This document shows, piece after piece, positions 6,364-29,884 of a stretch of 32,053 nt of DNA (positions are counted from its first letter, which is position 1; each line of letters starts with the position of its first letter). Below the pieces are notes generated by a model. It had not been told where the DNA came from. It saw only the letters and a list, made by a program, of their open reading frames with translations, and ran no database searches. A program made the translations under genes and the position numbers. Source of the stretch: an uncultured Candidatus Saccharibacteria bacterium. GTDB taxonomy: Bacteria; Patescibacteriota; Minisyncoccia; Phycocordibacterales; Zambryskibacteraceae. The stretch is from assembly GCA_964648835.1 (NCBI GenBank), contig CAZYLR010000003.1:1302-33354 (forward strand), read 5' to 3'.

Positions 6364-7701
6364 CTAACCAGATTTCTCTATAACCCATGAAGACAAAGAT
6401 ATAGGATTCCCGAATCTATCAATATACTCGATCTTGTCACCGGAAAGAGGCCTGAATATATCCGTAATGGACACAGTACAATTTCGCGCCAAGAAAAATT
6501 CTCTTAACTTACTGCGACTAAGCATATTCCGGCAATAATGCGGCAGTTCTATCTCAACATGATCGGGGATATCTTTTTCTAAAAGAAAGTTGATGATGAT
6601 CGTCTTTTGGGCAACGCGCAGTAGCTCTTCCAACGCCATTCTAAGATTTTCCAATGGGATATATTCCAAAACTCGACTTGCTAATACCACATCAAAGTTA
6701 GCGGATGGGAACGGAAGTCTTAAGATATTTCCATGTTCGAAACGCACGCTCGGGTAAAACCGCCGACTTTCCGCTATATTTTTTTCTGCGATATCAAAAC
6801 CAGTATAATCAAAAAAATTGTGAAGCCCATCTTTCATAAAACCGCTAAAATAATTTCCGGGTCCGCAACCGGCGTCTAGAAGTGAAAGTTGCGCTATTCT
6901 CCCCTCATGTCTCCGATATATTTTATCAAGCCGACGTCCCTCGGTTGTAGCGATAAAGTCCTGAAACCAGTTTGCTAAAAAATTGTTATCGCCCCATTTT
7001 AGATTGAACGACCTGCTGTAAAGAAACGCGAGCCCATTGACAATTTTATTTTTGATTGATAGGTCGATGCCTGGATTTTTTTCGAGGACTTTTTTAATTA
7101 TCATCTCTCGAACGAAAAACTTTTGCGGATGGTAAAAAGGATAAAACCGATTGTACCGATTAGCGAAATCGCGGATATCTTGGTCATGCGTAAATTTGCC
7201 GACATTTTTTTGAATCCAATCGTCTAAATCCTCCATTGGGTTATAAGTAAGAGGGTTTTCCTCAGGCGTCGGCTTTTCAAAAATCCTGATGGTCATCTCA
7301 AAAAAATCTTTTTCCAGAGAGCTCCTTTCCTTGGTTTCTTGGTTAAGAAGCCATTTTTTTCTGACTTCCGCCGGAGAGGTATTGACATAAATCAGCTTGA
7401 AGTTTGCGCCCGCATTTTCTGCAACCCGTCTCGCGCCCTCTCTTTCGTGCTGGTACAGGTTACATGAATCAAATATTACTGTTCTACTGTCGGCAAGGAG
7501 TCTTTTTAACCTGCTGTATGTTTCTTGATACACGGAATTCCAATCCGCCGGCGACATCCGCTCAATCTTTTGCCATCGTTCGGCGATTATCTCATCCACT
7601 GATACCACGCCAAAGCCAAAGCGCTTCGCCAAAACGTGTCGGAGCGTCGTCTTCCCGGAGTAAGGCAAGCCAACCATGATATAAAGCATCGGTTTTGACA
7701 T
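6364..7701 (-). CDS. P-loop kinase (AAA_33-like) fused to a class I SAM-dependent methyltransferase
   Basis: Walker A GLPYSGKT; SAM motif LLDAGCGPG, GFDIA, LPFPSANFDVV. Confidence 0.85.
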   Translation of the reverse strand: MSKPMLYIMVGLPYSGKTTLRHVLAKRFGFGVVSVDEIIAERWQKIERMSPADWNSVYQETYSRLKRLLADSRTVIFDSCNLYQHEREGARRVAENAGANFKLIYVNTSPAEVRKKWLLNQETKERSSLEKDFFEMTIRIFEKPTPEENPLTYNPMEDLDDWIQKNVGKFTHDQDIRDFANRYNRFYPFYHPQKFFVREMIIKKVLEKNPGIDLSIKNKIVNGLAFLYSRSFNLKWGDNNFLANWFQDFIATTEGRRLDKIYRRHEGRIAQLSLLDAGCGPGNYFSGFMKDGLHNFFDYTGFDIAEKNIAESRRFYPSVRFEHGNILRLPFPSANFDVVLASRVLEYIPLENLRMALEELLRVAQKTIIINFLLEKDIPDHVEIELPHYCRNMLSRSKLREFFLARNCTVSITDIFRPLSGDKIEYIDRFGNPISLSSWVIEKSG

Positions 7702-22502: not shown

Positions 22503-23978
22503 ATGACTAATGCTAAATTAAAATTCACGATACCAGAAGAAGTGAAAGATATTTCGCGGGTATTTAGCGCTGCCGGATTTGAAAATTTTCTAGTGGGTGG
22601 ATGCGTACGCGATTTAGTGATAGGAAGAACACCTAAGGATTGGGACGTCGCCACGAAAGCGAAACCGGAGGAGATAATCAAACTTTTCCCAAAAACATTT
22701 TACGAAAATGAGTACGGCACGGTAGGAGTAGTCAACGAGCAAACGAGTGACAAAACTCTCAAGGTGGTTGAGGTGACCCCATACCGGCTCGAATCTGGCT
22801 ATTCGGACTTCCGCCGACCGGACAAAGTGGAGTGGGGCAAGACTATAGAAGATGATTTGGCGCGCAGAGACTTCAGTATGAACGCGCTGGCCTATAATAT
22901 TGAGACGGAAGAATTGCTTGACCCATTTGGGGGCAAGGCGGATATCGAGAAAAAACTTATCCGCACCGTGGGACTGCCGGAGGAAAGGTTTGGCGAGGAT
23001 GCTCTCCGGATGTTTCGAGCATTGCGTCTCGCGAGCGAATTAAACTTCGCGATAGAACACGAAACTCAAACGGCGATAACGAAACACGCCGGACTTTTGG
23101 AGCACATCTCCCGCGAACGCGTGCATGACGAGTTTGCAAAAATTATCATGTCGGATACGCCTGCGCTCGCCTTTGACTTGGCCGCCCGTCTCGGGCTTCT
23201 GAATTTTATCTCACCGGAGTTTGAAAAGGGGATAGGGGTGGAACAAAATCAAGCGCACGCCTACACGGTCTGGGAACATTTACTCCGAACTCTTAACCAC
23301 GCCGCCAAGAAGAATTTTCCGCTCCATGTGCGTTTGGCCGCATTCATCCACGACGTGGCTAAACCTCACACGAGAAAGTGGCTCAAAGGTCAGTGGACCT
23401 TCTACAACCACGAGGTTATGGGAGCGCGGCTGGCGAGAGTCATTCTCTCAGACCTGCGATTTCCAAAAGAAATTATTGAAAAAGTGGTTAAGCTCGTACG
23501 CTGGCACATGTTTTTCTCTGATACTGAAAAGATTACGCTAAGCGCTGTGCGCCGTATTGTGAGAAATGTCGGGGTTGATCTCATCTGGGATCTTGTTGAT
23601 TTGCGCGTCTGCGATAGGATTGGTACTGGTCGCCCCAAGGAAACACCTTTCCGCCTGCGTAAATATAAGTCGATGATTGAAGAAGTGTTGCGCGATCCCA
23701 TTTCTGTTAAACAACTTGCTATAAATGGTGAAAATATAATGAAACTCACAGAGACTGGTCCAGGCCCTCACATCGGTTTCATCCTGGAAATTCTCCTCTC
23801 CGAAGTACTAGAGCATCCTGAACTAAACACGCGTGAGTACTTAGAGCAAAGAGTGGGGGAATTACATGCTCTCAAACCTGATGAATTAGTTGAACTGGGC
23901 AAAACCGCTCGATCTAAAAATGAAAACGAGGAAGAAAAAGAAATAGAAAAAATACGGGAAGAGTATAAAGTTCAGTAG
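22503..23978 (+). CDS. cca: CCA tRNA nucleotidyltransferase (class II) with HD domain
   Basis: LVGGCVRD, DWDVAT, DLARRDFSMNA, EDALRMFR, HDVAKP, HEVMGA. Confidence 0.93.
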   Translation: MTNAKLKFTIPEEVKDISRVFSAAGFENFLVGGCVRDLVIGRTPKDWDVATKAKPEEIIKLFPKTFYENEYGTVGVVNEQTSDKTLKVVEVTPYRLESGYSDFRRPDKVEWGKTIEDDLARRDFSMNALAYNIETEELLDPFGGKADIEKKLIRTVGLPEERFGEDALRMFRALRLASELNFAIEHETQTAITKHAGLLEHISRERVHDEFAKIIMSDTPALAFDLAARLGLLNFISPEFEKGIGVEQNQAHAYTVWEHLLRTLNHAAKKNFPLHVRLAAFIHDVAKPHTRKWLKGQWTFYNHEVMGARLARVILSDLRFPKEIIEKVVKLVRWHMFFSDTEKITLSAVRRIVRNVGVDLIWDLVDLRVCDRIGTGRPKETPFRLRKYKSMIEEVLRDPISVKQLAINGENIMKLTETGPGPHIGFILEILLSEVLEHPELNTREYLEQRVGELHALKPDELVELGKTARSKNENEEEKEIEKIREEYKVQ

Positions 23979-24020
23979 TTTCACAAGACTTTGGCTACAT
24001 ATTATCCTAAGTTTAGTCTC

Positions 24021-24056
24021 TACATCTAATTCATACTATCGTGAGTTATAGATGTA
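24021..24056. repeat. 36-bp palindromic repeat, copy 1
   Basis: TACATCTAATTCATACTATCGTGAGTTATAGATGTA. Confidence 0.85.
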
Positions 24057-24084
24057 TGGGTAAAGAGACAACTAAGAGATTGAT

Positions 24085-24651
24085 TTATAAGAGACCGAAA
24101 TATTCTCGTAAATGTTTGTCGTTCTCAATTTCATCGACAATCATATAGAGAAGGTCTTTCCCAATACCAATATCTGTTTTCAAAAGTCCCACAATGTCTT
24201 CACAATCATATGGATAAACCCAGACACTATCTTGCAAACGATAGAAGCCAGCCGAAATAAAGACACTACGAATTTGATCACGTGCTTTTCTTTTTTTCTC
24301 CGGAATATCAAAGATAACAACTCGCCATTTCTTGTCCCACTTAGGCGGACGTTTGAATTTATAATCTTCAAGTTCCCAATGCCTTAATTTCTTTTCTCCC
24401 ACCTCGGTCAGTTTATATCTGTTGTCTTGGTACATGAGCAACCCCTTTTTCACCAATTTACTTGCTGAAGAACGCACAATCTCTTCTTGACGTTTGTTGG
24501 GGAGAAGGCCGAGTTTTCCCATAGCCCCTATCACTTGAGGAGCAACTAACCCAATACTCAAAACCCCAGCAAGTTTCACCGAGTCTAGAATTAACTTCTG
24601 AATTTCCCCGCGCCTAACTCTTCTCTTATTATTTTCCTCTAGTTTGCCCAT
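24085..24651 (-). CDS. PaaX-like regulator (wHTH plus Cas2-like ferredoxin-fold domain)
   Basis: YKLTEVG wHTH; WDKKWRVVIFDIPE...RD.IR..F...GF.RLQDSVWVYPYDC; ATG 24651 preferred. Confidence 0.85.
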   Translation of the reverse strand: MGKLEENNKRRVRRGEIQKLILDSVKLAGVLSIGLVAPQVIGAMGKLGLLPNKRQEEIVRSSASKLVKKGLLMYQDNRYKLTEVGEKKLRHWELEDYKFKRPPKWDKKWRVVIFDIPEKKRKARDQIRSVFISAGFYRLQDSVWVYPYDCEDIVGLLKTDIGIGKDLLYMIVDEIENDKHLREYFGLL

Positions 24652-24686
24652 ACATCTATAATACACGATCGTGAGTTATAAATGTA
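24651..24686. repeat. 36-bp palindromic repeat, copy 2 (overlaps the PaaX-like -10 and start)
   Basis: TACATCTATAATACACGATCGTGAGTTATAAATGTA, 15/18 dyad matches. Confidence 0.85.
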
Positions 24687-24733
24687 GAGATGATGGTGTA
24701 GATATTAGATGGTTAATTTAATTTGATATGTGA

Positions 24734-25507
24734 CTATGCCGCTTGTGTTTTTTGTGCCTCATTTCCAAGAACTGATTCTTCACGAGACTTCCAGACCATT
24801 TCAAAAATTTGCCGCATAGTTTCTGCAATCGCTTCATTTTCGATAATAACACCCTGCAAATCTTTAAAGGCCATGATGCGTACAAAAGTGTCCCCGATTT
24901 CAATTGAATTTCTTGCGGAATAAGTCGTGGGAGGAACTATTTTCATAGTCCGACCGTATTCTTTATCAGTATCACGCCAGCGTTTGAGATTTGGATTATC
25001 AGGCACAATACCACGCACCGTGATGTGATCTTGCTTTAATCTCTCATTATAATCATCGAAAATCTTTAAAAGCTCAGGAGACGCGTCAGTTGCTTCAGCA
25101 TAGAATCCGACAATCTCTTTGTCCTTCATTCTCTCCACGCCATAAAGTGCAATATCTTCGATACCTCGTAACCCCTCAAAATAAAGTGTCTTCGGTTTTT
25201 CTCCACCAGAAGTCAAGGCCAAGAGTTCTGGCAGAGATTGTTTTGCGATTCTAAGACGCTCTTCGGCCTCACCGAAGAACTCTTCCGGCGACTTTGCCGT
25301 AAAGACTTGCTTCTTCGCATTGGGGATTTTGAGCACCAAGCCTTTCTTTCTAAGATCATCGAGCACCACATATACTGTCGGTCGTTTTAAGCCACTTTTC
25401 TCGGCCACGGCATAGGCGGTGGTTTGACCAAGACTAAGCAGAGCCAGATACACCTCGCTCTCTTTGGCACTAAGTCCTAGACTTCGTAAAGATTCTTCTA
25501 TTCTCAT
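24734..25507 (-). CDS. TrmB-family HTH transcriptional regulator 1
   Basis: LGLSAKESEVYLALL..G...A..VA..SGLKRPTVY..L..L..KGLV; YFEGLRGI; C-terminal A.TM.QIFE.VW; promoter TTGACT-N17-TACAAT. Confidence 0.9.
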   Translation of the reverse strand: MRIEESLRSLGLSAKESEVYLALLSLGQTTAYAVAEKSGLKRPTVYVVLDDLRKKGLVLKIPNAKKQVFTAKSPEEFFGEAEERLRIAKQSLPELLALTSGGEKPKTLYFEGLRGIEDIALYGVERMKDKEIVGFYAEATDASPELLKIFDDYNERLKQDHITVRGIVPDNPNLKRWRDTDKEYGRTMKIVPPTTYSARNSIEIGDTFVRIMAFKDLQGVIIENEAIAETMRQIFEMVWKSREESVLGNEAQKTQAA

Positions 25508-25626
25508 AAGCAACTGTATTGTATGTTATAGCAATAAAATAGTCAAGTTTTATGACTACTATATGAATAGTACTACAAAACACTCTATTTTATAAGCTTT
25601 TTTAGCTATATAGTCATAAGTAGTTA

Positions 25627-25655
25627 TTGACTATTAGCTTTGAATAGTATATAAT
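25627..25655 (+). promoter_or_regulatory. Sigma70 promoter, unit 1
   Basis: TTGACT-N17-TATAAT. Confidence 0.8.
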
Positions 25656-25722
25656 GTTTGCAGACTGAACATTGAAAGCCGATAAGCCCTGACCAGTAAT
25701 GGCAGGCACGGTACAGGAGACC
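25650..25722 (+). ncRNA. Conserved structured 5' leader, copy 1 (includes the -10 box)
   Basis: 70/73 identical to 27189-27260; GNRA-capped stem; ends in SD AGGAG. Confidence 0.6.
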
Positions 25723-25726
25723 AGTC

Positions 25727-26134
25727 ATGGACCTAAACAAGATCAGTTTTTTCAGGCCAGTTGTGGGCAAGACTCTTCGCGAGCAGCTCGAGGGCAAGAA
25801 CCTCGCAGGCCGCGAAGTGGTTGAATACCTTCGCTCCATAGGGGGCGAACGGTACGCGGAGTTCACTCCGCCCGCGCATTGGGAGAAGCCCTTCGGTCCT
25901 TCCAGCATGCAGTCTGGGGATCGCTGGGGTATCGACCTCCAGTGGATCTACGGCTTCTCTCTGACCCATTTGGACCCGCGCTCTCACAACACGGGGCGTC
26001 GTGTGAACGGGTTCGTCTGGACGGAGAAGTGGGGCTTCTCCTCTCATTACCGCCACTTTGAGGGCGACCCCCTCGATATGGTGGTAGGGAGAGAGTGGGA
26101 AGAGGGTGACTGGATCCTTGTCATTGACCCTTGA
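25727..26134 (+). CDS. GC-rich hypothetical cargo protein 1
   Basis: SD AGGAG, ATG, 135 aa, Trp/Gly-rich; a sampled line is about 63% GC. Confidence 0.75.
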   Translation: MDLNKISFFRPVVGKTLREQLEGKNLAGREVVEYLRSIGGERYAEFTPPAHWEKPFGPSSMQSGDRWGIDLQWIYGFSLTHLDPRSHNTGRRVNGFVWTEKWGFSSHYRHFEGDPLDMVVGREWEEGDWILVIDP

Positions 26135-26270
26135 CCACACGTAGTGTGAGCTACGTTAAAAATCTCACGGCGAAGTGCAATGCTTCGCCCGCTGTTCCGA
26201 GAGACTAATTCAAATTGGTTTTTCAGAAGAGCGAACCAAAAAATCTCTTTAAATCTCTTTGTTTCACCCA

Positions 26271-26306
26271 TACATCTAATTTGTACGACCGTGAGTTATA
26301 AATGTA
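26271..26306. repeat. 36-bp palindromic repeat, copy 3
   Basis: TACATCTAATTTGTACGACCGTGAGTTATAAATGTA. Confidence 0.85.
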
Positions 26307-26314
26307 GAGGATGA

Positions 26315-27091
26315 TTATGGATTTTTTTCAGCCATATTCCAGAGCATCATGAAAAACTGTTTATAGTTTTCGGCTACTGTTTCGGATTTAATGACATAGA
26401 CAAGTGGGGGAGTTAGAAAGCTATAGAATAGTACCAAATCTTTCCTTATAACCATATGCGTCACTCCTTGGGGCAAATCCTTCATAAACCTATGCTCCTG
26501 ATTTGACGGACGACCTATAACCTTCTCGTATAGTTCTCTTTCACTCTCATGACCTAAATAATAGACCTTGATATCTTTTTTATTCTTTTCCTCTAAATAC
26601 TCCTCGAGTTCGTCGCCCATAAGATCGGTAAATCCTCTAGAGTGTCCGCCTATAATAAACTCTTCGCCTCCTTTTTCGCTCTCATATACGTAATCCATCT
26701 CAAATTGTTGTATCTGTTTGGCTCCTTGCAGCACTTCAAAATCTTGGTCATTGTGAATGGCACTTATCTTATTGAGTTCATAGATAAGGTCGTTTGCCGC
26801 AATGCTTCTTTTGCGCGTAATCTTCTCAATCTCAAGAGGAGAGCGTGCTTTATACTTTTTATGCTTGCCGGAAGTAACCGCTTCGACCAAATTCAGATTC
26901 ATCAATTTTTCTAGAGCGACATAAACGTATTGTCTATGTAACCCGGTGCCGATAGCGATCTTGGATCCGCCGCTTTCACCGTTCTTTTGAAGTAAATACA
27001 GATACACTTCTGCTTCCGATCTTGAAAGACCCCAAGCAGTAAGGGTACTTACTAGGGGGTTGTTTTCTTTCTGTAATTTTCTATTTGTCAT
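26315..27091 (-). CDS. TrmB-family HTH transcriptional regulator 2
   Basis: GLSRSEAEVYLYLL, IA.GTGLHRQYVY.AL.KL..L.LV; C-terminal IKSETVAENYKQFF.MLW. Confidence 0.88.
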   Translation of the reverse strand: MTNRKLQKENNPLVSTLTAWGLSRSEAEVYLYLLQKNGESGGSKIAIGTGLHRQYVYVALEKLMNLNLVEAVTSGKHKKYKARSPLEIEKITRKRSIAANDLIYELNKISAIHNDQDFEVLQGAKQIQQFEMDYVYESEKGGEEFIIGGHSRGFTDLMGDELEEYLEEKNKKDIKVYYLGHESERELYEKVIGRPSNQEHRFMKDLPQGVTHMVIRKDLVLFYSFLTPPLVYVIKSETVAENYKQFFMMLWNMAEKNP

Positions 27092-27165
27092 AATATATAT
27101 GACAGTATATCAGAATATCTATAATATGCAATAATTTATGTCATAAATTAGTGTCATAATCTATA

Positions 27166-27194
27166 TTGACACATCAAGCCAGTTAGTCTATAAT
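27166..27194 (+). promoter_or_regulatory. Perfect-consensus sigma70 promoter, unit 2
   Basis: TTGACA-N17-TATAAT. Confidence 0.85.
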
Positions 27195-27260
27195 GTTTGC
27201 AGACTGAACATTGAAAGCCGATAAGTCCTGACCAGCAATGGCAGGCACGGTAAGGAGACC
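27189..27260 (+). ncRNA. Conserved structured 5' leader, copy 2 (includes the -10 box)
   Basis: Near-identical to 25650-25722. Confidence 0.6.
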
Positions 27261-27264
27261 GCAG

Positions 27265-27729
27265 ATGAAGATCCTGGTAATCGAAGACGACCCGAAGCAC
27301 ATGACCGACGCGAAGCAGTTTTTCGCGAGCCAAACCGGGGTCGAAGTCTCCTACCTGAAGCGTACGCCCTATCACCCGGTGTACGATGGGAGAGAACTTC
27401 AGCCTGGGAAGTACGACGGCGTCCTCTGCGACATCTACTTCTACGATGAACCGCACGGGGTCGCGGTCATGATGACCTGCAGGGAGCGCAACATTCCCTG
27501 CATCATGGTGACGGCGGGCTACCATCACGGCGATCGCTATAACTGGATCTGTATGATGGCCCGTGAGCTCCGTTGCCCTGAGATGGTCGACGCCTCGTCT
27601 GATCGTGAAAAGGAGGCCGACCGGAAAGATTGGGCGGAGGCCTTCGGTCAGCTGAAAAAGCTGATCGAGCGCGGCCCCTGCGGTGAACACGCAAGGTATG
27701 ACCGGTGCGTGTTTCACTCCTCCCTTTAG
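27265..27729 (+). CDS. GC-rich cargo protein 2: single-domain response-regulator receiver-like protein
   Basis: MKILVIEDD, VLCDIYF (acceptor Asp), IMVTA, later Lys; ATG 27265 follows SD AAGGAG. Confidence 0.75.
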   Translation: MKILVIEDDPKHMTDAKQFFASQTGVEVSYLKRTPYHPVYDGRELQPGKYDGVLCDIYFYDEPHGVAVMMTCRERNIPCIMVTAGYHHGDRYNWICMMARELRCPEMVDASSDREKEADRKDWAEAFGQLKKLIERGPCGEHARYDRCVFHSSL

Positions 27730-27750
27730 CTCAGCGAGCGCAATGCTCGC

Positions 27751-27781
27751 ACCACCGAATGAAGTTCGTTCGGTGGTTTTT
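27751..27781 (+). terminator. Intrinsic terminator after cargo 2
   Basis: ACCACCGAA...TTCGGTGGT followed by a T tract. Confidence 0.7.
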
Positions 27782-27795
27782 GTTTTTAAACAATC

Positions 27796-27850
27796 AAAAA
27801 ATCCCCTGAGCTCGTCCCGCTATGGCGGGGCAAGTCGAGGGGGATTTTTT
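27796..27850 (-). terminator. Terminator of hup (probably bidirectional) with an inner REP-like hairpin
   Basis: AAAAAATCCCC...GGGGATTTTTT enclosing CCCGC-TATG-GCGGG. Confidence 0.65.
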
Positions 27851-27868
27851 GATTTTCCAGCTGGAAAA

Positions 27869-28141
27869 TTATTTAACTGCTTCCTTCAATGCCTTAGCCG
27901 GGCGAAACTTCGGTACTCGCATGGATGGAACAGAAATGGCCTGCCCTGTACGAGGGTTTCGAGCCTGGCGGGCGGCACGGACTTTGGTCGAGAAGATGCC
28001 GAGACCAGCAATTGAAACTTCGCCGCCTTTCTTGAGAGTAGAGACGATTGAATCAATGACAATATCGACAACCTCCTCTGCCTGCGCTTTCGTGCCATTG
28101 AGCTTTCCGTGCACTGCATTTGCAATATCTACCTTATTCAT
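27869..28141 (-). CDS. hup: DNA-binding protein HU
   Basis: MNK.D, GLGIF, RAARQARNPRTG, PKFRPAKALK. Confidence 0.97.
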   Translation of the reverse strand: MNKVDIANAVHGKLNGTKAQAEEVVDIVIDSIVSTLKKGGEVSIAGLGIFSTKVRAARQARNPRTGQAISVPSMRVPKFRPAKALKEAVK

Positions 28142-28222
28142 TATTTATTATCTAATATTTTATTTGATAATTCTGACTCTATAACATCTATAGACTCGTG
28201 TTTGATTATATACTAAGCCATT

Positions 28223-29752
28223 TTATCTAGCAAACTCTATGGAGCGGGCCTCTCGGATGACATTAACCTTAATCTCACCCGGATATTTAAGCTCCTCTTC
28301 GATGCGAATAGCTATATCTCTAGCCATTTTTTTGGCCTCTAGGTCGGAGACTTTGTCCGGCAGGACGAAGACACGAACCTCACGACCAGCGGCCAGAGCA
28401 TAAGCCTTCTCCACACCTTCGTATGAAAGGGCGATCGCTTCTAGGTCTCCAAGACGTTTGAGATAGCGTTCGGCGGTATCCCGCCGAGCCCCAGGTCTTC
28501 CTCCCGAGATGGCGTCCGCCGTCTGCACAATAACAGATTCAACAGTTTCATACGGATATTCCTCGTGATGCGACTGCATCGCCTTGATAATATCTTCGGA
28601 AATATTAAACTTGGCTAAAATCTTGCGACCGATATCGACGTGCGTGCCGGAGACCTCATGGTCGAGAGCCTTGCCAATGTCGTGGAGCAGGGCACCAGCT
28701 CTAGCAACCGAGACATCCGCCCCGACTTCACCGGCAATCATGCCGGCCAAATGGCTCATCTCTATCGAATGGTCGAGGACGTTCTGGCTGTAACTGGAGC
28801 GGAAGTGGAGACGACCCAAGAGTGAGACTAGTTTAGGATCAAGGTTGTAGACCTCACACTCAATGACTGCCTGCTCACCCTTCTCCTTGATAATCTTATT
28901 TATCTCGGCCGCGGCCCTCTCCACAAATTCTTCAATCTTGGCCGGCTGAATACGCCCATCGAGAATCAGATTATCCAGCGCCAGTTTAGCTACAGCTCTG
29001 CGCACCGGGTCAAAAGAGGAGAGAGTGATGGAGTTGGGAGTGTCGTCCACTATCACCTCCACACCGGCGGCACGTTCAAAGGCTTTAATATTTCTACCTT
29101 CTTTGCCGATAATTTTGCCCTTCAGTTCATCTGATGGTAAAGAAACTGTTGTGCCCATCATCGCACTGGCAGTCGAGACAGCCAATCTCTGAATCGCGGT
29201 GGAAAGAATTTCCTTGGCGCGAGTATCAAGACGGTCTTCTCCTTCGGTTTCGAGTCTTTGCATGCGTATGAGAAGGTCTTCTTCAGCTTCCTTTTGTACC
29301 GTTTCCAAGAGCTCGTTTTTAGCTTCGCTATGAGAAAGAGCGGCCACCTTAGAGAGCTCCATCTGACGGGCCTCAACAAGTGTTTCTGCCTTCTCTCGGA
29401 GAGAAAGTATTTCCGCGGCTTTTTCCTTTACATGTTCGGCTTCTTTGTCCAAGTCAAGCACGCGCTTGTCGAGAAATTCCTCTTTTTTCACCAGGCGGTC
29501 TTCGGTTTTCTTTGCCCGATCCTCGCGTTCTTTGAACTCTATTTGGGTTTTCTTGGCAATTTCTTCCGCTTGAGTCTCCGCTTCCGAGATAATCCGCCGA
29601 GCTTCCTCTTTGGAAGCGAGCTCCATCTGCTTGATGTCGAGCTCCATCGAACCCTTCTTACCAAGAGAGATTAAGAGGCGCAGTAAATAACCAAAGCCGA
29701 TACCGGCAGATGCGGCAAGCAAGGCTAAAAGTAGCGCTAATTTAAGAGACAT
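28223..29752 (-). CDS. rny: Ribonuclease Y
   Basis: N-terminal TM, coiled coil, KH GKIIGKEGRNI, HD LLHDIGK, RPGARR, KYPGEIKV. Confidence 0.97.
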   Translation of the reverse strand: MSLKLALLLALLAASAGIGFGYLLRLLISLGKKGSMELDIKQMELASKEEARRIISEAETQAEEIAKKTQIEFKEREDRAKKTEDRLVKKEEFLDKRVLDLDKEAEHVKEKAAEILSLREKAETLVEARQMELSKVAALSHSEAKNELLETVQKEAEEDLLIRMQRLETEGEDRLDTRAKEILSTAIQRLAVSTASAMMGTTVSLPSDELKGKIIGKEGRNIKAFERAAGVEVIVDDTPNSITLSSFDPVRRAVAKLALDNLILDGRIQPAKIEEFVERAAAEINKIIKEKGEQAVIECEVYNLDPKLVSLLGRLHFRSSYSQNVLDHSIEMSHLAGMIAGEVGADVSVARAGALLHDIGKALDHEVSGTHVDIGRKILAKFNISEDIIKAMQSHHEEYPYETVESVIVQTADAISGGRPGARRDTAERYLKRLGDLEAIALSYEGVEKAYALAAGREVRVFVLPDKVSDLEAKKMARDIAIRIEEELKYPGEIKVNVIREARSIEFAR

Positions 29753-29884
29753 GATTTGCTGAACGGGACTTCGCCACGCCGAAGCGGGCTATGTCCTCGC
29801 GAAGGCGGGCGAGCAGAACGGTCAGGCGGGAGCTAAGAAACGTTTTAAACTATTTTTTAAGTGAACTACCGAAGTGTATCACAT

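Follow-up and report, generated by a model that had tools for sequence, protein, structure and literature searches.

The window considered here, that is, the whole stretch of DNA that was analysed (32,053 nucleotides), belongs to contig CAZYLR010000003.1 of an uncultured Candidatus Saccharibacteria bacterium. It contains a PaaX-like gene followed by two adjacent cassettes, which are surrounded by cca, hup and rny. Each cassette consists of a TrmB-type regulator gene, a divergent promoter, a leader with a hairpin, a GC-rich cargo open reading frame (ORF) and a closing hairpin, and long palindromes flank the PaaX-like gene and mark the junction of the two cassettes (Table 1). The source genome is a draft of 540 kb in 82 contigs, 78% complete and with a GC content of 0.44. 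Domains were assigned with Pfam, and scans with NCBIfam, PADLOC, PHROG and Rfam 15 were carried out as well. In the handles used below, L stands for a sequence stretch, G for a genome of the same genus, C for a contig of the source genome and X for a public run.

Table 1. Features of the cca–hup interval and its flanks (positions refer to the window)
Feature	Position	Strand	Evidence and remarks
cca (CCA-adding enzyme)	22503–23978	+	Pfam PolyA_pol E 2.6e-36, plus HD domain; conserved left flank
Palindrome PAL1	24017–24060		3' of the PaaX-like gene; 48-nt inverted pair with PAL2, 79% complementary
PaaX-like gene, 189 aa, winged helix and Cas2-like middle domain	24085–24654	−	PaaX_M 73.2 bits (cut-off 24), E 1.9e-20
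Palindrome PAL2	24643–24690		Overlaps the PaaX-like gene's start codon and upstream region; probable operator
TrmB1	24734–25507	−	Pfam TrmB 64.9 bits, E 6e-18 (cut-off 25.6); conserved DNA-binding domain and swapped sensor domain
Inverted repeat, TAGTCA..TGACTA type	25534–25564		Candidate TrmB1 operator
Cassette 1 promoter, TTGACT-17-TATAAT	25627–25655	+	11/12 consensus; overlapped by a second TAGTCA/TGACTA-type inverted repeat (25624–25655)
Leader hairpin, copy 1	25672–25720	+	Model R1 59.8 bits; three stacked helices; ends 2–4 nt before the Shine-Dalgarno sequence
Cargo 1, 135 aa	25727–26134	+	12 homologue clusters among 5.8 billion sequences
GCAAT-loop hairpin	26169–26189	+	Right boundary of the swapped cargo segment; homologous hairpin in G004
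Remnant hairpin	26217–26250	+	Degenerate intercistronic hairpin module, intact in relatives
Palindrome PAL3	26263–26310		Cassette 1/2 junction; stub like the 5' end of the PaaX-like gene
TrmB2	26315–27091	−	Pfam TrmB 46.2 bits, E 4e-12 (cut-off 25.6)
Cassette 2 promoter, TTGACA-17-TATAAT	27166–27194	+	12/12 consensus; preceded by GTGTCA/TGACAC-type repeats (27095–27158)
Leader hairpin, copy 2	27211–27259	+	Model R1 56.5 bits
Cargo 2, 154 aa, stand-alone receiver-like domain	27265–27729	+	Pfam Response_reg 20.9 bits (cut-off 30.2)
GCAAT-loop hairpin and intrinsic terminator	27734–27777	+	Hairpin 27734–27750; 12-bp stem 27751–27777 and T-run
hup (HU)	27869–28141	−	Pfam Bac_DNA_binding E 1.6e-29; conserved right flank

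The two units have the same layout, as the first-pass annotation of this DNA had described: palindromes, TrmB genes, promoters, leaders, cargo ORFs and GCAAT-loop hairpins were all located. The regulators had been called distantly alike, the cargos unrelated, the leader scaffold nearly identical and the promoters near-consensus, and all four descriptions hold. TrmB1 and TrmB2 are full-length homologues with 26% identity. Cargo 1 and cargo 2 show no sequence similarity, their predicted folds are unrelated, and a test of homology between them came out negative. The leader repeats at 25645–25713 and 27184–27252 are 96% identical (95% over 78 nt), and these two are the only copies in the draft genome. 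The promoters are the best sigma-70 matches of the region and stand directly upstream of the leaders.

Inverted repeats overlap both promoters, and the type of repeat differs between the two types of TrmB. The operator–promoter block of cassette 1 is kept in relatives. TrmB would repress the cargo promoter via this predicted operator. Residues 1–85 of TrmB1 are 91–94% identical to those of its counterparts in L097, L113, L116 and L143, and the identity over residues 86–257 is 40–48%. As judged from these values, TrmB1 is a chimera of a conserved DNA-binding domain and a swapped sensor domain. Orthologues of TrmB2 (86–88% identity) are found in L104, L127 and L120, where they are paired with other cargos. 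It should be mentioned that the best NCBIfam score against the sugar-sensing TrmB/TrmBL equivalogs was 31.6 bits versus cut-offs of 500–650, and that the C-terminal domains of TrmB1 and TrmB2 gave no match to the sugar-binding C-terminal family.

Comparison with related loci revealed which parts of the interval are variable. The neighbourhood of cca was inspected in 29 loci of the genus: hup follows cca in 21, a PaaX-like gene lies between them in two, and three are cut by a contig end. The other three loci (G004, G017 and G018) have the order cca, PaaX-like gene, TrmB, different cargo and hup, the contig of G017 ending before hup, and their TrmB proteins are 26–33% identical to TrmB1. In G017, a stub of the 3' end of a TrmB1-type gene lies beside a different TrmB gene, and a third palindrome with a stub of the PaaX 5' end lies behind the cargo. 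Therefore, these modules were replaced and did not diverge in place.

The same layout of cca, PaaX-like gene, TrmB, promoter, leader, cargo and hup was seen among 16 metagenome stretches regarded as chromosomal relatives (GC 0.39–0.49). At least one homologue of cca, the PaaX-like gene, hup or rny (77–100% identity) was found in 14 of the 16; L124 and L147 match in TrmB only. Behind the same operator–promoter–leader block, these relatives carry 11 distinct first ORFs of 135, 154, 166, 86 (two unrelated kinds), 103, 213, 259, 87, 60 and 101 aa, four of which are receiver-like. The first ORF is often trailed by further small ORFs with structured spacers between them. L140 is of the window's own type (99.5% identity over 4165 nt). 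L160 is 99.4% identical over window positions 26184–29800, which comprise PAL3, TrmB2, cargo 2, hup and rny, and its cassette 1 holds another cargo: there is no match across cargo 1, the promoter and leader are 85% identical up to 25720, and in the TrmB gene the first 254 nt are 87% identical and the sensor domain is different. The segment that was swapped is thus bounded on the left by the end of the leader (25720) and on the right by the right arm of the GCAAT hairpin (26184).

The TrmB sensors in these loci are of three types, each of which occurs with several cargos, and one cargo of 86 aa is found together with TrmB of two types. Since the cargo varies within a sensor type, the sensor does not go with the cargo; recognition of its own cargo protein by the sensor was considered and rejected on this ground. 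Public runs were compared as assembled contigs, and the parts of X16 and X18 lacking contig cover were not used as evidence. In a groundwater/soil contig of run X18, position 24817 is joined to 26315 and cassette 1 is absent; in one of run X14, 26245 is joined to 27833 and cassette 2 is absent. Both joints end beside PAL3.

The leader hairpin is the most solid new piece of this analysis and is considered to be a candidate new RNA motif. In an alignment of 11 copies, the predicted fold consists of an outer helix P1 (GCCG/CGGY), a conserved internal loop, a helix P2 (CCUG/CAGG), a bulged A and a variable P3. In this alignment 93.8% of the cells are paired; none of 500 shuffles was as good, and controls in which the structure was slid gave 26–43%. 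A covariance model built from it (R1) was used to collect further copies. The 50 distinct sequences among the 150 best R1 matches, whose alignment was fitted to R1 itself, are 97% paired and show covariation, with changes on both sides in five pairs; again none of 500 shuffles was as good, and slid controls over both alignments gave 22–47%. The helices contain 25 G·U cells versus 4 A·C cells, and therefore it is the sense strand that folds. The motif is always in the sense orientation of the following gene, and a Shine-Dalgarno sequence and a start codon are directly behind it at 47 of 58 distinct sites. Because of the G·U bias, the ribosome site and start codon behind it and its position behind promoters, the leader seems to act at the RNA level, on the transcript. 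With Rfam 15, the leader was unmatched both at gathering scores and at E ≤ 5, and seven related loci were unmatched at gathering scores.

The structured motif is widespread on conjugative elements, and thus it is not private to the cassette locus. The exact hairpin pattern gave no match in species-representative genomes and matched two overlapping IMG/VR contigs (GC 0.58–0.60), in which the motif stands before several genes and its inner hairpin is altered in a compensating way. These contigs encode a Cas4-type exonuclease, a Gp3-like protein and RadC. A relaxed pattern was found in 66 metagenome stretches, including the 16 chromosomal relatives, and in three stretches from species-representative genomes: L091, a GC-rich element binned with a Saccharibacteria metagenome-assembled genome, and two others that score 23–26 bits. 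In total, R1 gave 169 matches in 68 sources (the 66 stretches, the window and L091). Forty of the non-chromosomal stretches have a GC content of 0.53–0.65 and carry one to six leader copies each, and the longer GC-rich ones encode TraG_N, TraN, TraU, TrbC, a ParM-like actin, ParB, a primase, CbbQ/CobT and DUF3150. The nearest named relatives are plasmids of Geobacter and Pelobacter, at about 40% protein identity. From their gene content, the GC-rich carriers are read as F-type conjugative elements. A search of PLSDB with the L091 leader region gave no DNA match. Weaker R1 copies, in which the outer helix is changed on both sides as seen by eye, occur in 3 of 120 genomes of relatives; that of G017 belongs to a unit of TrmB, promoter, leader and a 77-aa ORF beside nusA.

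Several further observations concern the leader and the elements that carry it. In L106, L111, L157 and L161 (GC 0.41–0.48), the hairpin lies behind sigma-54-like −24/−12 boxes recognised by eye, and it also occurs between consecutive small genes, right after the previous stop codon. L149 (reverse strand, about 6818–7070) contains five tandem hairpins before a 23-aa ORF, the last of which alone has a ribosome site. This arrangement is also seen in L110, L145 and L158, and in these four stretches more hairpins precede a 38-aa ORF and a cca-like gene (30–37% identical to the cca of the window). In L090 (reverse strand, 1900–2030), L091 and L149, the first leader hairpins of the conjugative elements are preceded by about 130 nt of conserved sequence; this segment ends in a hairpin and a T-run, is 89% identical between L091 and L090, and may be a small RNA or an attenuator. 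Two other conjugative-element contigs carry known RNAs: a HEARO RNA (98.9 bits) beside an HNH-type ORF at L153:7357–7580, and an int-alpA RNA (42.3 bits) at L103:13965–14034.

The two cargos are different in how far they can be described. Cargo 1 has no match in Pfam, NCBIfam, PADLOC or PHROG, and Foldseek searches of PDB and BFVD with its model, which has a predicted local distance difference test (pLDDT) value of 80, gave nothing at E ≤ 0.001. A C-type-lectin-like fold was considered for it and dropped: the wide VIA search gave a Z value of at best 4.0, too weak for use. Cargo 2 (20.9 bits) and three related cargos (17.6–23.5 bits) miss the gathering score of PF00072, 30.2. The model of cargo 2 (pLDDT 74.8) matches 101 PDB chains at E ≤ 1e-3 in Foldseek, the best being receiver domains, and D8, D56 and T83 are invariant across six sequences of this type. 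Cargo 2 is thus predicted to be receiver-like, with a receiver fold and conserved acidic pocket residues. The cargo segments have a GC content of 0.59–0.62 versus 0.44 genome-wide, the value rising from about 0.40 to 0.60 at the cargo. At the 3' side, the terminator behind the second GCAAT hairpin has a folding z of −5.5. In the chromosomal class as a whole, three 3' hairpins and a short tail motif occur in 28, 18, 6 and 9 copies in 81 kb. PADLOC and PHROG matched the winged-helix or Cas2-like parts weakly and the cargos not at all; for the five proteins of the island the best PHROG match (E 2.8e-4) was not a confident one, and the stretch examined showed no prophage genes. In the scan of the locus itself, Rfam gave a single weak match, Ms_IGR-7 with 25.8 bits (cut-off 45), sited on the hup terminator.

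The PaaX-like gene, described in the first reading as having a PaaX/Cas2 fold and as bracketed by palindromes, indeed carries a PaaX_M domain and lies between PAL1 and PAL2. All of its atlas neighbours belong to PF20803, and its product is 77–93% identical across nine metagenome relatives. Against the full-length PaaX equivalog TIGR02277 it scores 45 bits versus a cut-off of 264.55. The palindromes are 36–40 nt long and belong to a repeat family (23994–24059, 24624–24689 and 26244–26309; 67, 100 and 74% identity to the reference copy), spaced by 630 and 1620 nt in the window. The core is self-complementary (24651–24672 versus 24665–24686, 86%). A 17-nt pattern with at most two mismatches gave eight forward and four reverse matches in the genome and none in either direction for the reversed control, which places the family above chance. 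Eight copies were counted on contigs C3, C11, C15, C24 and C40: three in the window, two on C15 and one each on C11, C24 and, as a variant, C40. Further variant copies are on C3 beyond the window, C16 and C72. On C40, a paralogue of the PaaX-like protein (62% identity) has a variant palindrome on both sides, so that the palindrome centre differs between the two paralogues of this genome. Palindromes are likewise on both sides of the PaaX-like gene in G000, G017, G018, G033 and G006, and the centre is altered in G033, G006, G004 and G018.

The 36-nt palindromes are therefore most likely, as far as their position and variation tell, the operator of the adjacent PaaX-like protein; this is the simplest reading, given that PAL2 extends across that gene's start codon and upstream region. 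On this operator reading, the copies at junctions are most simply explained as leftovers of recombination in the PaaX 5' region.

Other copies of the palindrome have their own surroundings. At C15:6420–8035, between dprA and topA, two GC-rich ORFs, encoding a 104-aa membrane protein and a 174-aa protein, are each followed by a terminator and the same palindrome, so that both C15 palindromes stand after a GC-rich ORF and terminator; this site has no TrmB gene and no leader hairpin. In G006 (L049), a 144-nt direct repeat, 95% identical between 600–743 and 1407–1550, brackets the PaaX-like gene. It consists of the cca 3' end and the palindrome, a pattern as after a single-crossover or site-specific insertion. 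On C16, the variant palindrome is directly behind an apparent tRNA 3' end (by eye), 1.8 kb from a serine recombinase gene.

Related insertions were also noticed near the locus and in relatives. A third unit lies on the same contig, about 1.3 kb past the right end of the window (C3:34684–36650, L162), between nusA and rpsO. Its parts are a palindrome of the variant kind, a winged-helix-like gene of 276 aa (minus strand), a promoter, a leader of which the 5' portion is present but not the hairpin, two GC-rich ORFs (135 and 158 aa, neither with a Pfam match) and a terminator. In L143 (reverse strand, about 6574–7637), and also in L126 and L128, a partial hup (residues 44–90) and a full hup surround a gene with an ORF6N domain (Pfam E 4e-26 in L143), a second case of a duplicated flank at a hotspot insertion. 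L160 has a pair of genes of 75 and 95 aa between the palindrome and TrmB (1252–1744), which from its sequence features we take to resemble a RelE/ParE-type toxin–antitoxin pair; a similar 95-aa ORF is in the cca–hup gap of L058 (G025).

We consider the cca–hup interval to be an accessory-gene hotspot made of repressor-controlled slots, the cargo of which is exchanged by recombination at conserved non-coding boundaries, and give this reading a probability of roughly 0.6. The boundaries and the swapping of cargo and TrmB domains are demonstrated by the alignments of related loci. A slot would comprise a minus-strand TrmB gene, an operator over a divergent sigma-70 promoter, the hairpin leader, one to several cargo ORFs and a closing hairpin or terminator. 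TrmB would hold the cargo promoter off as long as its C-terminal domain has not perceived a signal. The leader hairpin might serve as a context-independent start module that frees the ribosome site, stabilises the 5' end or binds a factor; as such a module, it would make any ORF placed behind it expressible. The cargo and the sensor half of TrmB would be replaced via recombination in the leader on the left and in the hairpins or palindrome on the right. This exchange would take place between related strains and, because the leader is shared, probably also with conjugative elements after uptake of their DNA. The palindromes would be the operator of the PaaX-like protein, copies of its 5' region having been left at cassette junctions. 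Uptake of plasmid DNA as the source of cargo is something we infer. Frequent gene transfer is reported for groundwater Patescibacteria and DNA uptake by competence is proposed (PMC12455944); this report fits the proposed route of exchange and does not test it.

The first-pass annotation had already seen a cassette system in which regulator and cargo are swapped around a fixed non-coding chassis. The 11 first ORFs behind one leader and the breakpoints of L160 bear out the cassettes; the leader, far from being limited to two copies with fixed cargo, was found in 66 metagenome stretches, and its cargo varies in the 16 chromosomal relatives among them; the cca–hup interval is empty in 21 of the 29 genus loci and holds other modules in some. 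The leader and promoter are kept as the fixed chassis demands, but the chassis also includes the DNA-binding domain of TrmB and the operator. The palindromes do punctuate the array at its junctions, but with eight copies in the genome they are not private to the locus. In the same manner, the leader is shared by both cassettes as part of the system but belongs to a motif widespread on conjugative elements.

A number of findings weigh against the exchange of cargo in repressor-controlled slots. The two deletion joints are each a single contig at 92% likeness from mixed communities, and they represent strain variants, not excision. RNA runs with the locus were 0 among 20 listed runs. The tandem hairpins of L149 without ORFs mean that a start codon is not always served. 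The 3' punctuation elements of the relatives occur 0 times in 340 kb of the other stretches, which leaves the leader as the sole link to them. No cargo donor was found: the cargo proteins had no match in the conjugative-element stretches, which are partial contigs, and cargo relatives numbered 0 in viral contigs. The high GC content of the cargo, a candidate proof of foreign origin, was discarded as such, being weakened by 64 GC-rich 300-nt windows (at least 0.565) in the source genome and by the cargo behind the R1-like leader in G017, which has a GC content of 0.37. Furthermore, three large serine recombinases of the genome (532–572 aa; C16:2930–4549, C8:9715–11433 and C6:13999–15597) could act on the palindromes.

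A stronger version of exchange in slots would be a capture and expression platform specific to small-genome bacteria of the Candidate Phyla Radiation (CPR), in which the leader shared with plasmids is a portable adaptor, both a ribosome-entry or stability module and a homology handle through which plasmid genes acquired as DNA come to lie behind a signal-responsive TrmB promoter, and the PaaX-like protein and palindrome set or catalyse the boundaries. This proposal is tentative and rather unlikely; if true, the platform would be a functional analogue of the integron without an IntI recombinase.

Integron-like site-specific capture, with the palindrome as the site, the PaaX/Cas2-like protein or a serine recombinase as the enzyme and circular cassettes as the substrate, is unlikely. 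Large serine recombinase att sites are imperfect palindromes of about 40–50 bp. The three serine recombinases mentioned above would be candidate enzymes, and palindromes are placed at cassette junctions (PAL2, PAL3, and twice after the cargo ORFs of C15), where PAL3 and the G017 copy hold a stub of the PaaX-like 5' end. Like intI of an integron, the head gene is divergent, and the 144-nt repeat around the PaaX-like gene of G006 and the partial hup duplication of L143 could mark insertions. However, the window contains no recombinase gene, as had been noted before; the single PF00589 tyrosine recombinase match of the draft genome is on contig C33, and Cas1 (PF01867) had no match in this draft, which is 78% complete. 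In the manner of an operator, the palindrome changes with the paralogue and extends over the start and upstream region of the PaaX-like gene; it is missing from the far end of cassette 2. Moreover, none of the mapped breakpoints is inside the palindrome; they fall at the leader and at the 3' hairpin. Each cassette also has a promoter of its own.

Doubts are greater still about a leader that functions as DNA, for example as a nicking site, a single-strand promoter or an attC-like folded site of conjugative elements, its position ahead of start codons being secondary. The leader is commonest on conjugative elements, which enter cells single-stranded, and tandem copies without ORFs occur. Its two short helices, unpaired bulge and variable tip may recall a folded attC. 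On the other hand, the leader is constantly in sense orientation, a Shine-Dalgarno sequence and a start codon follow at 47 of the 58 sites, the excess of G·U over A·C fits a transcript or the sense strand only, and the leader lies downstream of consensus sigma-70 promoters or, elsewhere, of the sigma-54-like boxes seen by eye.

Local duplication followed by gene conversion, in which the units would be diverged paralogues and the leader alone homogenised, would explain adjacent units of the same layout with leaders 95–96% identical. It is highly improbable and already contradicted, in agreement with the earlier view that a simple old duplication is unlikely: the cargos are unrelated in sequence and predicted fold, 11 different ORFs of relatives and many plasmid genes stand behind this one leader, a strain with a different cassette 1 has a cassette 2 of 99.4% identity, and TrmB1 is a mosaic of domains. 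An assembly or binning artefact joining GC-rich foreign pieces to a low-GC genome, which the 82-contig draft and the GC jump at the cargo might suggest, has a negligible probability and is likewise contradicted, by the same junctions in the independent metagenome contig L140 and by contigs bridging promoter and cargo in runs of several studies (for example, X1 record 5 over 25657–27218).

The genomes of CPR bacteria (Patescibacteria) are tiny, a genetic system for these organisms is lacking, and the ways in which they acquire and control accessory genes are poorly understood. The locus seems to be a natural landing pad whose boundaries are known, with three or more sensor types and one standard leader, and it yields predictions on regulation and on gene flow between plasmids and episymbionts. 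The leader motif, with 50 distinct sequences and a position before dozens of unrelated genes of F-type elements, bears on how mobile elements are expressed in new hosts. The recurrent stand-alone receiver-like cargos hint at interference with signalling. If the parts behave as inferred, they would be ready-made insulated expression parts for organisms without genetic tools. The layout was not found described in a narrow literature search, which does not by itself make it unpublished.

In its working, the locus is comparable to an integron array and to phage morons, and its leader to the start-associated sequences (SAS) of mycobacteriophages, but it has the defining features of none of these. 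As in integrons, small swappable ORFs, mostly of unknown function, are separated by structured imperfect palindromes, the head gene is divergent and the content varies between close strains; the likeness of the window palindromes to attC was assessed by eye only. In contrast to integrons, there is no IntI-type recombinase at the locus, every unit has its own regulator and promoter instead of a common promoter Pc, and the conserved structured element is 5' of the ORF, on the sense strand by the ribosome site. Phage morons are autonomous units of promoter, ORF and terminator with deviating composition, situated between conserved genes and exchanged at short boundary sequences. The units of the window likewise have their own promoter, ORF, terminator and deviating composition, whereas they are in a chromosomal locus and each is tied to a repressor of its own and to a shared structured leader.

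The leader resembles the SAS and extended SAS (ESAS) of Cluster K mycobacteriophages in being a repeated motif with a ribosome-binding region before the start codons of unrelated genes. SAS and ESAS are asymmetric, are frequently linked to an inverted repeat whose spacer varies and are thought to concern translation initiation (PMC3203893). The 13-nt SAS consensus given there is not the sequence found in the leader, and the likeness is one of position and layout only. The leader differs in its three stacked helices with a conserved internal loop and in its occurrence on conjugative elements and a cellular chromosome, with host-type promoters.

The regulators share with the TrmB family the N-terminal winged helix PF01978, a C-terminal domain of about 170 aa and inverted repeats over the target promoter, but their targets are small variable genes, not sugar metabolism. 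The PaaX-like protein has a PaaX_M domain behind a winged helix and long palindromes adjoining its gene, as a repressor with its operator; it differs in being 189 aa only and in the lack of paa genes, and it is not part of a CRISPR adaptation module because no Cas1 was found in the 78% complete draft genome. Finally, the fixed site between conserved genes, which is empty in most relatives and otherwise occupied by different small modules, is like that of an accessory or defence-island hotspot; unlike in such hotspots, no cargo fits a PADLOC model, and the modules share an expression scaffold.

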